Of a DNA stretch of 35,455 nt, positions 4,255 to 11,686 are shown one piece after another. This DNA is from an uncultured Muribaculaceae bacterium (GTDB taxonomy: Bacteria > Bacillota_I > Bacilli_A > RF39 > UBA660): NCBI GenBank assembly GCA_964616645.1, contig CAZTUM010000003.1, positions 1-35,455 of the forward strand. Direction: 5' to 3'. Position 1 is the first letter of the stretch; each line of letters opens with the position of its first letter. The notes below the pieces were generated by a model. That model saw only the letters and a list, made by a program, of their open reading frames with translations. It was not told the origin of the DNA and made no database searches. Made by a program: the position numbers and the translations under genes.

Positions 4255-4282
4255 TAACTATTAAAAAAAAGTAGTTACTTTT
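4253..4282. terminator. Bidirectional hairpin between convergent genes
   Basis: AGTAACTA (4253-4260) pairs perfectly with TAGTTACT (4272-4279). The loop is A-rich and a T-run follows on the + strand. Confidence 0.55.
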
Positions 4283-5405
4283 AATTTGTGTATCTTAAGC
4301 TTTGATTAGATACATTGAATACAATTCCTAGTAAAAACATATATGAAAGTAGGCTTGAACCTCCATAACTAATAAATGGTAGGGTAATACCCATAATAGG
4401 GAGAAGTCCCATAGTCATAGATAAGCTCCATACTTGTTGAAAGACTAACATCGCGGTAATTCCAATAATAGTATATTTATCTGTGCTATCATATACTTTA
4501 TAAGAACAATTAACCAAATTAATATCAAAATAAATAAATAATATTATTAAAATTATAGACCCAATTAAACCATAATTAGAAGAAAAAACTCCATATATAA
4601 AATCAGTTTGTAATTCAGGAAAATAAATAGGGGTATTATTAAATCCATGTCCAGTAATTCCTGCACTACCAATTGCAATAAGAGAATTAGTAAGCTGACT
4701 TCCACTTCCAGAAGACCAATTAATAATTCTATCCATACGATAGAAAAAACTAGTACCAAATATTTTAATAAATAAATCATCATTAATAAAATATATTAAA
4801 AATAGTAAAGAGATAAATAAAACTAATATTCCTCCTGTATAAACAAACCATCTTCTTCTAATACCTCCAACGAAAAGCATTACAATAGTAGTAACTAAAT
4901 AGATTAATACGGCACCAGTATCAGGTTCTATAAAGGTAAGTATTGAAGGAATAAAAACTACTATCATAACTTTAAGAAGAAATTTAAATTCAGTTTCAAT
5001 ACTAGGATTAATATAGGTAGTATTATAATCATTAATCATTTTAGATAAAGTAAGGATAAGTATTACTTTCATAAATTCAGATGGTTGAAGTAAAAATAAA
5101 CCAAAATCAAACCAACATTTAGAATTGTTAACACTTTTACCAAAAAATAATACTAAAACTAATAAAATAATATTAATAATATATAAAATGTAGGCACTAT
5201 TATGTAAAACTTTATTTCCAATAGTCATTATAATATAAGCGAGTCCAAAGCCTAATATATACCAAATTAATTGTTTTAAATATAAATTATGCATATAATC
5301 AGGTAGTAACTTACTTGCACTATATATTGTAGTAACGCTAATTAAGGCAAATAATATAATTGGAATAATTATACTTAATTCAACTTTATACTTAGAAATA
5401 TTCAT
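4281..5405 (-). CDS. SEDS-family protein (FtsW/RodA/SpoVE)
   Basis: 374 aa with about 10 TM helices. SEDS hallmarks: SEFMKV, EPDTGA, and the C-terminal LLPIMGITLPFISYGGSSLL block. Confidence 0.85.
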   Translation of the reverse strand: MNISKYKVELSIIIPIILFALISVTTIYSASKLLPDYMHNLYLKQLIWYILGFGLAYIIMTIGNKVLHNSAYILYIINIILLVLVLFFGKSVNNSKCWFDFGLFLLQPSEFMKVILILTLSKMINDYNTTYINPSIETEFKFLLKVMIVVFIPSILTFIEPDTGAVLIYLVTTIVMLFVGGIRRRWFVYTGGILVLFISLLFLIYFINDDLFIKIFGTSFFYRMDRIINWSSGSGSQLTNSLIAIGSAGITGHGFNNTPIYFPELQTDFIYGVFSSNYGLIGSIILIILFIYFDINLVNCSYKVYDSTDKYTIIGITAMLVFQQVWSLSMTMGLLPIMGITLPFISYGGSSLLSYMFLLGIVFNVSNQSLRYTN

Positions 5406-7039: not shown

Positions 7040-8620
7040 TTACTTTAATATATAATTATTATTATCAGAAATAGTATCTTTAGATAATACTAATTTTTTA
7101 TATTTATTCTTTTCACATTGTACTTGAAATCTTGCTTTACTAGTCATTTTAAATACAATTTCAAATAATGACCTAGCTCCTGTATTTAACTCTAAAGCTT
7201 TCTTTGCAATAGCGTTATAAACATCTTCATCGTTAATCATTTCTACATTGTATAAAGCAAATAATTCTTTAACTAAGAGGATTGGACTATTCACTGAATT
7301 TTTAAGTATATCAATTAGAATATCCATATTCATAGGGTTCATAATTATTTTATTATTACATCTACCAATAAATTCTGGAAGTAAACCAAATTTATTAAAA
7401 TTATCTGTAGAATAAGCGTTAGTAACTTTATTATCATAAGTATTATTAAAGCCAATTAAAGGAGTAGTTTTAACTAAATCTTTTAGTCCAGAAAAAGCTC
7501 TCATTGCTACAAAAGTCATATTAGTAGTATTAATGGTAATATTCTTTTTACCATATGTAAAGGTATACTTACCACCTTCCATAAGTTTAAGTAAAGACTC
7601 TAATACTCCAACAGTGGCAACTTTATCATTAGAATTATTACCCGCTTTTTTATCAATTTCATCAACAACTAATATACCTCTTTCAGCTAAGTATATATCT
7701 TCATTAGCACTAGATAGTAAGTGTATTAGCATATCATCAATAGATTTACCAACATATCCAGCAATAGTATACTGAGTAGCATCTTCTACAACCATTGGAA
7801 TATGTAAATTATTAGATAATAATCTAAATAATTCTGTCTTACCAACACCAGTATCTCCACAGATTAAAATATTCTGTTTAAGTCTTGGATTAGTAATTCT
7901 TTGATTAATGTCTATCGCAGATATAATTTGTTTTACTTGTTCATTTTGTCCTTTTAGAGAAGTAGTAACAATATTATAAATATCATTTACATTAATATCT
8001 GTTTTTTTATCTTTATTAATACTATTATTATATGAATTATCTATTTTAACTAAATCATTTTCATTTGGATTATTATTTTCACATAAAAGTTGGATAATAT
8101 ATTCTCCGACATCTTTAGCTTCACCACATATAGCTTCTCCAATAGCTTTATAAGAAGAACAAGCAAAATCAACAATTTCCATTTCTTTAATATGTCTATT
8201 AATAGTATAGGTATAAAAACTATTTTCCTTAATTCTTTGATAATATAAATATTTATCTATAATATTAAAGTAATTACTTGCTAAATAATTTAAAGCATCA
8301 CTATTATTAAAATAAATATCAATCCCTAAAGCAAGGTCCATGTCTTCTGAAGTCTCAGAGCATCTTTTTAAAGTATCTTTAAGAAATTCAATAGAAAGAG
8401 GAAATCCAAAAACAAATTCATCATCTAAAGAGTCTAAATTATTGGCAAAATTATATTTGCTTAAAACTACTTTATTTTTTTCAGTTTTCTTAACAATCTC
8501 TGGCATTGTTTTAAAAGTTTTTAAATCATTACTGACTTCACCAAACAAGAAAGTATAAGGTTCTAATTTATATTCCTCTTTTAGCTTTTTTCTTTTAAAA
8601 ATAATTGCAATATCTTTCAT
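7040..8620 (-). CDS. ClpX-like AAA+ unfoldase with a non-canonical N-terminal domain
   Basis: From about aa 212 the protein reads like ClpX. It has Walker A GDTGVGKT (7835-7858), pore-1 loop AGYVGKS, Walker B ILVVDEIDK, the ClpP-docking tripeptide IGF (7448-7456) and sensor-2-like GARSL. The first ~205 aa replace the C4 zinc-binding domain and contain no Cys4 pattern. Confidence 0.75.
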   Translation of the reverse strand: MKDIAIIFKRKKLKEEYKLEPYTFLFGEVSNDLKTFKTMPEIVKKTEKNKVVLSKYNFANNLDSLDDEFVFGFPLSIEFLKDTLKRCSETSEDMDLALGIDIYFNNSDALNYLASNYFNIIDKYLYYQRIKENSFYTYTINRHIKEMEIVDFACSSYKAIGEAICGEAKDVGEYIIQLLCENNNPNENDLVKIDNSYNNSINKDKKTDINVNDIYNIVTTSLKGQNEQVKQIISAIDINQRITNPRLKQNILICGDTGVGKTELFRLLSNNLHIPMVVEDATQYTIAGYVGKSIDDMLIHLLSSANEDIYLAERGILVVDEIDKKAGNNSNDKVATVGVLESLLKLMEGGKYTFTYGKKNITINTTNMTFVAMRAFSGLKDLVKTTPLIGFNNTYDNKVTNAYSTDNFNKFGLLPEFIGRCNNKIIMNPMNMDILIDILKNSVNSPILLVKELFALYNVEMINDEDVYNAIAKKALELNTGARSLFEIVFKMTSKARFQVQCEKNKYKKLVLSKDTISDNNNYILK

Positions 8621-8700
8621 AATATATCACCTGTAAGGAATATTATACTTGATAAAATAACTAAATTTGTTATACTTTACATTAATTTAACGGTATTATA

Positions 8701-9330
8701 TTATAATTTTCTGTATAATCCAATGGCTTTTCCTAATACAGTAACATTATTTAAAATAATAGGTAGCATAAAATCGTTTTCAGGTTGTAATCTAAAGTAG
8801 CCATTTTCTTTATAAAAAGTCTTTAATGTAACTTCATTATCATCAGTCATAGCTACAATCTTATCTCCATTTTTAGCAGTATTACATCTTTCTACAATAA
8901 CAATATCTCCATCAAATATTCCAGCATTAATCATACTTTCTCCACTAACTTTCAAAGTAAAAACTTCTTTTTTAGATGGTATTAAATATGCAGGTAATTG
9001 AAAATATTCATTAGGTGTTTCTATTGCTTCAATAGGAGACCCCGCGGTGACTTTACCAAGAAGAGGAACAGAAACAACTTCATCACTTTTATCTAAATAT
9101 TCATTATCTACTAGAATTTCAATAGCTCTATTTTTTGTATTTTCTTTTTTTATATAACCTTTATCTTCAAGATTATTTAAATGAACATATACTGTTGCAG
9201 GAGATTTAAGTCCAATACTAGCTCCGATTTCTCTGATAGAAGGAGGGTATTTGTGTATTGCAACAAATTCTTTAATAAAATTTAAAATTTCTTCTTGTTT
9301 GTTTGTTAAATTATCTTTTTTGTTTTTCAT
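8701..9330 (-). CDS. lexA: LexA repressor
   Basis: Start moved to the internal ATG at 9330, which has RBS AGAGGTGA; the longer track ORF runs into the promoter. Winged-helix N-domain (PPSIREIGASIGLKSPATVYVHL), Ala-Gly cleavage site VTAGSP, Ser nucleophile GESM and Lys in VTLKTF. Confidence 0.92.
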   Translation of the reverse strand: MKNKKDNLTNKQEEILNFIKEFVAIHKYPPSIREIGASIGLKSPATVYVHLNNLEDKGYIKKENTKNRAIEILVDNEYLDKSDEVVSVPLLGKVTAGSPIEAIETPNEYFQLPAYLIPSKKEVFTLKVSGESMINAGIFDGDIVIVERCNTAKNGDKIVAMTDDNEVTLKTFYKENGYFRLQPENDFMLPIILNNVTVLGKAIGLYRKL

Positions 9331-9348
9331 ATTATCACCTCTATTTGA

Positions 9349-9377
9349 AGTATACCATATAATATGTAAAATGTCAA
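9349..9377 (-). promoter_or_regulatory. lexA promoter (TTGACA-17-TATACT on the minus strand)
   Basis: Minus strand reads TTGACA (complement of 9372-9377), a 17-nt spacer, then TATACT (complement of 9349-9354). The -35 overlaps LexA box 1. Confidence 0.6.
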
Positions 9378-9388
9378 ACTTTTGTTCG
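9375..9388. promoter_or_regulatory. LexA operator 1 (Gram-positive Cheo/SOS box)
   Basis: CAAACTTTTGTTCG differs from the consensus CGAAC-N4-GTTCG at one position. Confidence 0.7.
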
Positions 9389-9396
9389 AGAAAATA

Positions 9397-9425
9397 TTGA
9401 CACAAATATTTGTTCGTGTTATTAT
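9397..9425 (+). promoter_or_regulatory. Divergent sigma-A-type promoter (TTGACA-17-TATTAT)
   Basis: TTGACA at 9397-9402, a 17-nt spacer, TATTAT at 9420-9425. It drives the small ORF at 9452 and probably the SDR gene. Confidence 0.6.
9403..9416. promoter_or_regulatory. LexA operator 2 (weaker half-site match) inside the promoter spacer
   Basis: CAAATATTTGTTCG has a perfect GTTCG right arm and a degenerate left arm. It lies between the -35 and -10 of the + strand promoter. Confidence 0.45.
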
Positions 9426-9451
9426 TAAAATACATTGAAGGAGGTATATAT

Positions 9452-9586
9452 ATGAAAAAGAATAAAAATAGTAAAGGAGTTATATTTTTCTACATAATTT
9501 TATTATTATCAACATTTTTTTTATTAAATAATGATGATAAATACAAAGAAAAAGAACAAGAAACTTATTTGGTGTTTCAAAAATAG
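9452..9586 (+). CDS. 44-aa single-pass membrane peptide (not in the ORF track), candidate SOS-induced division inhibitor
   Basis: ATG at 9452 preceded by GAAGGAGG. Translation is MKKNKNSKGVIFFYIILLLSTFFLLNNDDKYKEKEQETYLVFQK, with stop TAG at 9584-9586. It has a basic N-terminus, one TM helix and a charged tail. It is divergent from lexA behind a LexA-boxed promoter. Confidence 0.5.
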   Translation: MKKNKNSKGVIFFYIILLLSTFFLLNNDDKYKEKEQETYLVFQK

Positions 9587-9629
9587 AAATATGTGGTATA
9601 CTATAAATAATAGAAAGAGGATTGATAGT

Positions 9630-10382
9630 ATGAAATGTTTAATAACAGGTGCTTCATCTGGGATAGGAAGAGATATGGCTAATTATATGAAATCTTTAGG
9701 ATATGATTTATTTTTAGTTTCAAAGGATAAGGATAAATTGGATTCTTCATTTAAAGAAGATAATATAACTAAAATACAATTAGATTTATCTAAAGAAGCA
9801 AATTGTTATAAATTATATGAAATGTTAAAAAATGAAAATATTGATATTTTAATAAATAATGCAGGGTTTGGGGATGCAGGGGAATTTATAGAAACAGATA
9901 TAGAAAAAGAATTAAATATGATAGATTTAAATATTAAAGCGTATCATATATTAACTAAATTATTTTTACAAGATTTTGTAAAAAGAGATTATGGTCATAT
10001 ATTAAATGTAGCATCTATAGCGGGATTTATGCCAGGACCTTTCATGGCGACTTATTATGCTACTAAGTCGTATGTTTTAAATTTATCATTAGCAATTAAT
10101 GAGGAATTAAAGCAATCTAAATCTAAAGTTAAAATATCTATATTATGTCCAGGGCCAGTGAAAACTAATTTTAATAAAGTAGCAAATGTAAAATTTAATA
10201 TAGGTCAAATTAGTAGTAAAAAATGTGCAAAATTAGCAATAGAGGGTATGTTTGAAAATAAATTAATAATTATTCCATCGACATCTATGAAAATAAATAG
10301 AGTACTAGTTAAGATACTTCCATTAAATGTAATAACTTACATTAATTCTAAAGTACAAAGAAAAAAGGTATATAAAAAGTAA
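9630..10382 (+). CDS. Short-chain dehydrogenase/reductase (classical SDR)
   Basis: Start set at ATG 9630 (RBS GAAAGAGG). TGASSGIG cofactor motif, NNAG, and the catalytic YxxxK within YYATK. Confidence 0.85.
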   Translation: MKCLITGASSGIGRDMANYMKSLGYDLFLVSKDKDKLDSSFKEDNITKIQLDLSKEANCYKLYEMLKNENIDILINNAGFGDAGEFIETDIEKELNMIDLNIKAYHILTKLFLQDFVKRDYGHILNVASIAGFMPGPFMATYYATKSYVLNLSLAINEELKQSKSKVKISILCPGPVKTNFNKVANVKFNIGQISSKKCAKLAIEGMFENKLIIIPSTSMKINRVLVKILPLNVITYINSKVQRKKVYKK

Positions 10383-10385
10383 GCA

Positions 10386-10417
10386 ATCTAATATATATCA
10401 TTAGATACTTACTTTTT
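10386..10417. terminator. Hairpin between convergent genes
   Basis: ATCTAAT (10386-10392) pairs with ATTAGAT (10400-10406) around a 7-nt loop, followed by ACTTACTTTTT. Confidence 0.4.
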
Positions 10418-10423
10418 ATATAT

Positions 10424-11686
10424 CTATTTAATTTTTCTTGCTTCTAAATAATATCTTTTATCATAGCTATGACCCATAGAGAAAGTTTTTCTAGGTAATG
10501 CACCATCTAAGATAACACTTTTGAATAAGTCTTCTTTTTTCATAGGAGGTAGTAGAATACCTAAATTATTATCATTGTTTGCTAATTGTCTTACAACGTC
10601 ATCTCCATGAATATAATCAATTCTTCCATTAAATTTATCTAAATATTCATCAATAAATATTTGAATAGAACCTACAGCTAAATTTGATTTAGGATTTTCT
10701 ATATAAATAGTTTTATTATACTTCTTACTTACAAATTCCATTTTTTGACCATTACCATCATAGTTAATATTATAATATTTATTTAATTCATCAATAAAAT
10801 TATCAACATCTATATCAAATAATACTCTATGAATAGGTTCAAATTCTAAAGCTTCACTATGAAGATTAACTACTTCTACTAAAGCATATCTTGCTTTATC
10901 TAGGATATTTTTATCTATCTTTTCTTGTTTTAATTTTTCATAACATGCTTTCGCAGTTGCTAAAGAGTGATTTCCATCTCCTACTGCAAATAATAATACT
11001 CCTTTATCCGTAACATTATATTTTTTATTAAAGTTATCAATATTGGCTAAGTTATCTAATTTATTCATAATATCATTAATGATACTTTCATTTAATTTAT
11101 AACCTTTAATATGCCCTCCGTTTTGCATAAGTGGGCAGTCATATACTATATCATTATCACTAACAACTTTATCTAAATTATCAATAATATTCTTATTTTC
11201 ATCATCAATTAATAACATAACATGAGGCAATTCTATTAAAGCATTATCTCTTACTTTCATTCTAGGGGGAATCCTAGAAGTAACGGTTTTTTCAGTAGCT
11301 CTAATCATTGTAGTAGAACCAATATTATAATCATAATCTTCTAAATCAATCATTCCAATAATACCTTTTCTACATTTACCATCTAAAGTTGTTCTTTCAA
11401 TATATAAAAGACTATTTTCTAATGTAGTAAAAACATCATCATTAAGATAATCCATCATTGTAGAGTTAATTAAATTAATTCTCTTATCAACATCTTCACT
11501 TTCTAAATATACTTCAGGTAATATAAGTTTTAAAGTAGATTTATCACTACCTACAAATCTTTCTACATTTTTCCAATAATTAGGTTCAGATGTATATTGG
11601 TCACATGCAACAACACACCATTTTTCCATATCAATATTTTTTGGTATTAAAATATCTGCTCTTTTAAATGTTTTCATAACACTCAT
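10424..11686 (-). CDS. DUF1015-family protein
   Basis: 420 aa. The N-terminal ADILIPKNIDMEKWCVVACDQYTSEP...LILPEVYLE and the later GDGNHSLATAK block resemble Firmicutes DUF1015 proteins as I recall them. Not verified by search. Confidence 0.55.
   Translation of the reverse strand: MSVMKTFKRADILIPKNIDMEKWCVVACDQYTSEPNYWKNVERFVGSDKSTLKLILPEVYLESEDVDKRINLINSTMMDYLNDDVFTTLENSLLYIERTTLDGKCRKGIIGMIDLEDYDYNIGSTTMIRATEKTVTSRIPPRMKVRDNALIELPHVMLLIDDENKNIIDNLDKVVSDNDIVYDCPLMQNGGHIKGYKLNESIINDIMNKLDNLANIDNFNKKYNVTDKGVLLFAVGDGNHSLATAKACYEKLKQEKIDKNILDKARYALVEVVNLHSEALEFEPIHRVLFDIDVDNFIDELNKYYNINYDGNGQKMEFVSKKYNKTIYIENPKSNLAVGSIQIFIDEYLDKFNGRIDYIHGDDVVRQLANNDNNLGILLPPMKKEDLFKSVILDGALPRKTFSMGHSYDKRYYLEARKIK

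Follow-up and report, generated by a model that had tools for sequence, protein, structure and literature searches.

Does the short open reading frame (ORF) that faces away from lexA in this DNA encode a protein and, if it does, would that protein belong with the small inhibitors of cell division that are induced in the SOS response? Division inhibitors of the SOS response that are small and anchored in the membrane have so far been described in only a few cultured model bacteria, one species after another. In several Gram-positive bacteria, the gene that is transcribed away from lexA codes for an inhibitor of division (PMC6851548). The DNA analyzed here, from this point on the window, is a stretch of 35,455 bp that makes up contig C3 of a MAG of 0.61 Mb, which is 71% complete and has a G+C content of 25%. 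A literature search for the RF39 lineage, to which the source organism belongs, in combination with the SOS response or lexA gave, among the matches listed, no paper that names RF39. An initial annotation of the window, made from the letters alone, had drawn attention to an unlisted ORF between lexA and an SDR gene, had placed two back-to-back promoters, each with a LexA-box-like site, in this interval, and had likened its position to that of YneA and SosA. The features that bear on this reading are collected in Table 1.

Table 1. Features of the lexA region of the window, ordered by position
Feature	Position	Strand	Remarks
lexA, SOS repressor, 209 aa	8701-9330	-	Pfam LexA_DNA_bind (1.5e-21) and Peptidase_S24 (2.3e-31)
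lexA promoter	9349-9377	-	TTGACA 9377-9372, spacer 17 nt, TATACT 9354-9349; 11/12, TG ahead of the -10; arrangement repeated in aligned relatives
LexA box 1 (predicted)	9375-9388		CGAACAAAAGTTTG, read on the minus strand; overlaps the lexA -35
Peptide-gene promoter	9397-9425	+	TTGACA 9397-9402, spacer 17 nt, TATTAT 9420-9425; 11/12; TG at 9417-9418 (extended -10)
LexA box 2 (predicted)	9403-9416		CAAATATTTGTTCG; takes up 14 nt of the 17-nt spacer in the plus-strand promoter
RBS	9437-9444	+	GAAGGAGG; ATG follows after 7 nt; relatives show strong sites of the GGAGG type here
44-aa single-pass membrane peptide gene	9452-9586	+	Encodes MKKNKNSKGVIFFYIILLLSTFFLLNNDDKYKEKEQETYLVFQK; homologues in 89/110 lexA loci
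Extended -10-like element	9594-9602	+	TGGTATACT, just past the peptide stop; kept in all three same-genus loci, with the downstream gene differing in one; no good -35
SDR gene, 250 aa, ATG 9630	9630-10382	+	Pfam adh_short (8.2e-39); 43 nt after the peptide gene

In addition to its two Pfam domains, LexA shows in its translation, on inspection by eye, the Ala-Gly site of cleavage (VTAGSP) as well as the catalytic pair of Ser (in GESM) and Lys (in TLKTF). A gap of 119 bp separates lexA from the peptide ATG at 9452, and inside it lie two divergent promoters, which a promoter scan ranks as the two top sigma-70-like sites within 8600-10500. Both promoters are found exactly where the initial annotation had set them back to back. 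On the other side of lexA, 80 nt downstream and on the same strand, a gene for a ClpX-like AAA+ protein of 526 aa (Pfam AAA_2) occupies 7040-8620 (minus strand); it is kept after lexA in two same-genus relatives and not in other genera. In other bacteria, ClpXP breaks down the fragments that LexA cleavage leaves, and a ClpX paralogue linked to lexA could have relevance for SOS recovery.

The two boxes, one annotated at the lexA -35 and the other in the spacer of the plus-strand promoter, are the only sites in the 35,455-bp window within two mismatches of CGAACNNNNGTTCG. Their number is not above chance, as 0.85 sites are expected and two matches were reached in 25 of 100 shuffles, and box counts are likewise at chance level genome-wide; the significance of the boxes therefore rests on their position and on their conservation in relatives. 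Outside the gap between lexA and the peptide gene, PWM and mismatch scans of the source genome (71% complete) returned no convincing LexA box, and its three sites with at most one mismatch compare with 0-4 in shuffles. The other exact CGAACN4GTTYG site of the genome, at L032:1229-1242 on contig C18, falls inside a 168-aa ORF that lies between an AAA+ ORF and one for a reverse transcriptase (YMDD motif), a setting that resembles a retroelement or DGR and is mobile-element-like; this site is probably a chance match. The left half-site of box 2 is degenerate in the window, where it reads CAAAT for CGAAC. Each of these two changes is found singly in relatives, the combination is unique to the window, and the nearest relative has AGAACATTTGTTCG at this position. 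Given two mismatches in one half-site, LexA may repress the peptide gene less strongly in this species. Promoter geometry places the predicted transcript start near 9432, about 7 nt beyond the -10, which gives the peptide mRNA a predicted leader of about 20 nt; the upstream in-frame TTG at 9410 therefore precedes the predicted transcript start.

Conservation of the ORF was assessed in lexA loci collected from 29 relatives by genome search and from 80 further species by related-locus search. These relatives are MAGs of uncultured gut Bacilli, Tenericutes or Mollicutes from humans, goats, rabbits and chickens, and include Candidatus Scybalousia and Candidatus Pelethosoma, the latter filed by NCBI under Mycoplasmatota incertae sedis. 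With a profile built from 18 first-pass peptides, 89 of the 110 loci turn out to have a homologue on the strand that runs away from lexA. With starts set by the RBS, homologues range from 43 to 58 aa, most commonly 46-48; L010, L014, L104 and L129, where the automatic start choice was off, were left out of the statistics by a length filter. Between close pairs, which are not independent of one another, substitutions at codon positions 1, 2 and 3 number 110, 94 and 253, and lengths differ by multiples of three without exception. To illustrate, the window and its nearest relative differ by 7, 5 and 17 substitutions at the three codon positions, with 14 synonymous and 11 non-synonymous codon changes. 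On this comparative evidence the ORF at 9452-9586 is a real, conserved and uncalled gene, and the peptide sequence itself is under purifying selection.

The family extends beyond the loci collected here, as an exhaustive profile search against 1.84 billion cluster representatives returned 315 proteins at an E-value threshold of 0.001. Among the best 150 of these 315 representatives, all are 40-81 aa long, the longer ones carrying N-terminal extensions from early start calls, and no long or multidomain relatives occur among them. Named matches read only 'hypothetical protein [Bacilli bacterium]'. A set of 15 billion called proteins does not contain the exact peptide, so the description of the peptide as unlisted holds. 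No family match was obtained for the window peptide in Pfam, or for 59 members searched against the 18,950 models of NCBIfam. When the profile was run against 301 genomes of the class, matches were confined to the bacterial family of the window, and by this measure the peptide family is restricted to one bacterial family. Three borderline matches outside that family were rejected, as they fall inside large ORFs.

The peptide consists of a K-rich segment (residues 1-8), a predicted TM helix (residues ~9-26) and a polar tail (residues 27-44) that ends in YLVFQK, as the initial annotation had described in outline. The same plan recurs among 73 non-redundant members, where the N-terminus is net positive in 63, a hydrophobic core of ~17 residues starts at residue 8-10, and the tail comprises 18-30 residues of mixed charge. 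The tail often closes on an alternating hydrophobic motif followed by N or Q and then K, as in YLVFQK, IVMNAK and IAVNLK; the best-conserved stretch is the juxtamembrane K-G-x-I-x-F-Y. AlphaFold2, supplied with a 59-sequence alignment, predicts a helix from residue 7 to 27, with a mean pLDDT of 92 for residues 11-20 and low confidence in the tail. By the positive-inside rule, the one guide to orientation used here, the N-terminus is probably cytoplasmic and the polar tail of ~20 residues outside. The peptide had been annotated as lacking a LysM domain, which agrees with the lack of a Pfam match and with a tail that, at ~19 residues, is too short to hold one.

The promoter region is conserved along with the peptide. 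Anchored on box 2, the family consensus is ATTGACA-CGAACAAaTGTTcG-TGaTAtaAT, also written TTGACA-CGAACAAATGTTCG-TGnTATAAT, and that of the peptide promoter is ATTGACACGAACAAaTGTTcGTGaTAtaAT. In the relatives, the LexA box constitutes the promoter spacer between a consensus -35 and an extended -10, and in almost every locus its start lies 41-54 nt ahead of the peptide ATG. Farther upstream, at 69-90 nt, 43 non-redundant relatives have a second box that overlaps the lexA -35, and the sense promoter scores at least 10/12 in 66 of 73 relative loci. Conservation of the ORF and of both boxes, which had been named as the check to make, is thus strongly positive. Since the promoter of the organism's own recA is cut by a contig end, the operator was checked on recA of relatives instead. 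Of the 16 relatives with both a bona fide lexA and sufficient upstream sequence, 15 show a box ~100 nt before the RecA domain, and none of the five class relatives without lexA does. In the relatives, a palindromic box of the Bacillus-type (Cheo) LexA operator, CGAACN4GTTCG, is therefore found at both lexA and recA and co-occurs with the lexA gene. Promoter consensus, box position and co-occurrence at recA support the conserved motif as the predicted LexA operator of the lineage. In one member of another family of the same class (L025), the gene divergent from lexA is Cas9-like (MENYTIGLDLGVSSVGWSIF...) and starts ~350 nt from the lexA start; the intergenic region between them holds the LexA box CAAACATTTGTTCG.

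The gene downstream of the peptide gene is always co-directional, at a median gap of ~50 nt, and its identity varies while the peptide is kept. Among 65 relatives, the downstream ORF encodes a transketolase in 23, PolA (5'-3' exonuclease) in 17, a SirA-like protein in eight and an SDR in two; an SDR gene occupies this place in the window and its nearest relative only. On this distribution the SDR gene is a genus-specific neighbour and no conserved part of the unit. It had been suggested that the SDR gene, at a distance of 43 nt, may ride on the same SOS transcript; the distance is correct. The element TGGTATACT is likely a candidate extended -10 promoter whose -35 region would lie in the last peptide codons, and its conservation in the genus despite a changed downstream gene suggests that the SDR gene probably has its own promoter. 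No terminator was identified in the gap between the two genes, where the fold of 9560-9650 is no better than that of shuffled sequences (z = -1.33), so that SOS read-through into the SDR gene is possible. A terminator-like hairpin follows the peptide gene in just 13 of 73 loci.

The recurrence of transketolase and SirA-like genes downstream of the peptide in relatives recalls the yne region of B. subtilis. Given the B. subtilis gene order lexA-yneA-yneB-ynzC-tkt-sirA(yneE), the peptide occupies the yneA slot of a conserved neighbourhood, which reinforces the positional likeness first drawn by the initial annotation. The SirA-like gene is exemplified by L004:742-1170 (minus strand; PF10747, E 2.5e-8, above cut-off), ~57 nt downstream of the mini-peptide gene, with equivalents in L066, L081, L082, L084, L085, L094 and L103, for a total of eight relatives. 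The ~1-Mb genomes with a SirA-like gene are unlikely to be those of spore formers, and the SirA-like protein may be an SOS-linked inhibitor of replication initiation that stands beside a division inhibitor. In L019, the mini-peptide gene is followed after ~64 nt by an ORF for a DivIVA/GpsB-domain protein (PF05103, E 4.5e-12), a cell-division factor.

How does the peptide compare with known SOS membrane proteins? SosA of Staphylococcus aureus is a protein of 77 aa whose function, CtpA-dependent turnover and topology have been shown by experiment (PMC6851548). Like the peptide, it is divergent from lexA and LexA-controlled (a prediction in our case), has an N-terminal TM segment and a C-terminal part outside the cell (again predicted here), and lacks LysM. 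The N-in, C-out topology predicted for the peptide is the one shown for SosA. Both also diverge quickly, with 25-60% identity among staphylococcal SosA sequences and a similar range here. The peptide is shorter (44 aa, 43-58 aa across the family) and its ectodomain measures ~20 residues, as opposed to ~45 in SosA; no sequence similarity between the two was detected, the family profile having been run on the sample of 301 genomes of the class. YneA of B. subtilis and Listeria (~105 aa; NF010723) shares with the peptide the slot divergent from lexA, LexA boxes in the common intergenic region and a single N-terminal TM helix. Unlike the peptide, it has a LysM domain, and it is more than twice the size. 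The YneA model NF010723 gave, for one of 59 members in an NCBIfam hmmscan, a match at E 0.068, far below cut-off. The TM helix of YneA docks on TM7 of FtsW, and the same target has been predicted for other SOS membrane inhibitors (PMC13396833, 2026). In B. subtilis, the TM helix of YneA alone reaches the division site without inhibiting, and binding of LysM to peptidoglycan is required (PMC13396833).

Closer to the peptide in size are products from more distant bacteria, among them SidA of Caulobacter, which is mentioned in the SosA study (PMC6851548). The peptide and SidA are both LexA-regulated (predicted here) miniature membrane peptides without a folded domain. SidA of Caulobacter crescentus is a bare TM peptide of 29 aa that blocks late division through the FtsW/FtsI/FtsN group. 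It differs in being alphaproteobacterial, unrelated in sequence, not divergent from lexA and devoid of a ~20-residue extracytoplasmic tail, and the SidA model NF033228 matched none of the 59 members at E <= 0.1 in NCBIfam. The peptide had been called shorter than any of its counterparts, which is true of YneA and SosA, with the caveat that SidA is smaller. TisB and DinQ of E. coli are also small and hydrophobic and have LexA-repressed promoters, as predicted for the peptide. These two are almost entirely transmembrane (29 and 27 aa, respectively). Each is paired with an antisense RNA antitoxin and has a leader that is long and structured, whereas the peptide has a predicted leader of ~20 nt and a conserved tail predicted to be external.

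We therefore weighed several explanations of the locus against one another. Analogy with YneA, SosA and SidA makes it reasonably probable, in our estimation, that the peptide is an SOS-induced, LexA-repressed, membrane-anchored inhibitor of late division. A LexA-controlled TM product of ~45 aa without a recognizable domain could instead be a membrane toxin or persistence peptide in the manner of TisB and DinQ, which would depolarize or disturb the membrane as a whole and halt growth, without specificity for the divisome; the lack of the peptidoglycan-binding module that YneA requires to inhibit division would fit such a role. Against this, only 10 of 73 loci show an antisense promoter of at least 10/12, at scattered positions, as compared to 66 of 73 for the sense promoter; the predicted 5' UTR of ~20 nt with its exposed, strong RBS is unlike those of type I toxin mRNAs; and a conserved, predicted external tail of ~20 residues with a C-terminal motif, in a fixed yneA-like slot, points to a specific partner. 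We give a toxin of this kind a small, though appreciable, chance. A type I toxin-antitoxin system proper, of the TisB/IstR or DinQ/AgrB type, was rejected, as the 73 loci have no conserved antisense promoter and the predicted leader is short.

The C-terminal tail could also be the active part on its own, if the basic N-region and hydrophobic core formed a cleavable signal sequence and the last ~20 residues were released as a signal or effector. The motif that recurs at the extreme C-terminus is in keeping with this, as is a weak match of one of the 59 members to a Phr N-terminal model (E 0.0046), a result no better than chance with 59 queries and 18,950 models. The hydrophobic stretch, at ~17-20 residues, has the length of a TM segment, AlphaFold2 predicts one long helix (7-27), and alignments inspected by eye reveal no consistent small-x-small cleavage motif after the core; an exported peptide is accordingly a reading to which we attach very little probability. 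Some other specific role, such as the modulation of a transporter, a protease or competence, or a function of the locus as promoter donor for the downstream gene, would suit the co-directional gene found at a median of ~50 nt, the scarcity of terminator-like hairpins (13 of 73 loci) and the 17 loci where that gene is polA, a plausible SOS gene. A donor of this sort is hard to reconcile with a downstream gene that changes identity while the peptide stays and with purifying selection on the peptide sequence, and the -10-like element after the stop in the genus suggests separate promoters; we regard this family of explanations as unlikely. Lastly, a short ORF next to an autoregulated lexA, in a genome of 25% G+C and with a peptide absent from called-protein collections, might be a chance open frame in AT-rich DNA. 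Homologues in 89 of 110 loci, the codon-position bias, in-frame length changes, a strong RBS, a consensus promoter and the 315 cluster representatives among 1.84 billion proteins effectively refute this.

For the favoured reading, that of a late-division inhibitor, we infer LexA binding, damage induction, topology, divisome target and turnover route of the peptide in the following manner. In unstressed cells LexA would sit on box 1 and box 2 and, from its place on box 2 between the two elements (-35 and -10) of the peptide promoter, would keep RNA polymerase out. Once DNA is damaged, self-cleavage of LexA stimulated by RecA would free both promoters, the short and strongly ribosome-bound mRNA would be translated, and the peptide would enter the membrane. 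There it would most likely delay cytokinesis by way of the late divisome, that is, the FtsW/PBP septal wall synthase, and an extracytoplasmic protease may clear it during recovery, with the retained S41 CtpA-type protease as candidate. Bacteria of this lineage have a cell wall. The source genome, which is incomplete, has two SEDS FtsW/RodA genes, one in the window and one on contig C33, and SEDS genes occur in 23 of 26 relatives; the S41 CtpA-type protease is represented by a single gene in the source genome and is likewise present in 23 of 26 relatives. Both are widespread, so their presence is permissive, and an S41 protease is required for turnover of the SosA type, by way of the C-terminus, without being specific to it. 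One SEDS-family (FtsW/RodA/SpoVE) gene, at 4281-5405 (minus strand), lies 4 kb from the peptide gene and encodes a candidate target; its closeness is probably a coincidence.

Because the TM helix of YneA alone is not inhibitory and needs LysM, a peptide without a wall-binding domain would need a different inhibitory step, which the ectodomain of ~20 residues would have to supply. One tentative version, which we consider more doubtful than not, is that these peptides of 44-48 residues arrest septal peptidoglycan synthesis by combining a TM helix that docks on FtsW with a ~20-residue ectodomain, whose strand-like C-terminal motif (hydrophobic-x-hydrophobic-x-N/Q-K) would clamp or plug the FtsW-PBP complex, and that they replaced the LysM-bearing YneA in a lexA-X-tkt-sirA slot. 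If this is true, the peptide would be the smallest Gram-positive effector of a DNA-damage checkpoint and a minimal peptide inhibitor of a SEDS polymerase, and the lexA-X-tkt-sirA slot would have been conserved while its occupant turned over. Were the peptide to block the FtsW-type septal synthase with no peptidoglycan-binding domain, it would stand as a pared-down natural inhibitor of an essential polymerase of the cell wall and a useful counterpart to YneA, which depends on LysM.

The concept of a division inhibitor divergent from lexA is already known; the locus probably encodes a miniature version, for which no sequence similarity to the others was detected. This family is unannotated and compact, with its 315 cluster representatives, and gene callers miss it. 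As SOS-induced division inhibitors, its members would give the uncultured, very abundant, small-genome gut Bacilli a DNA-damage checkpoint.
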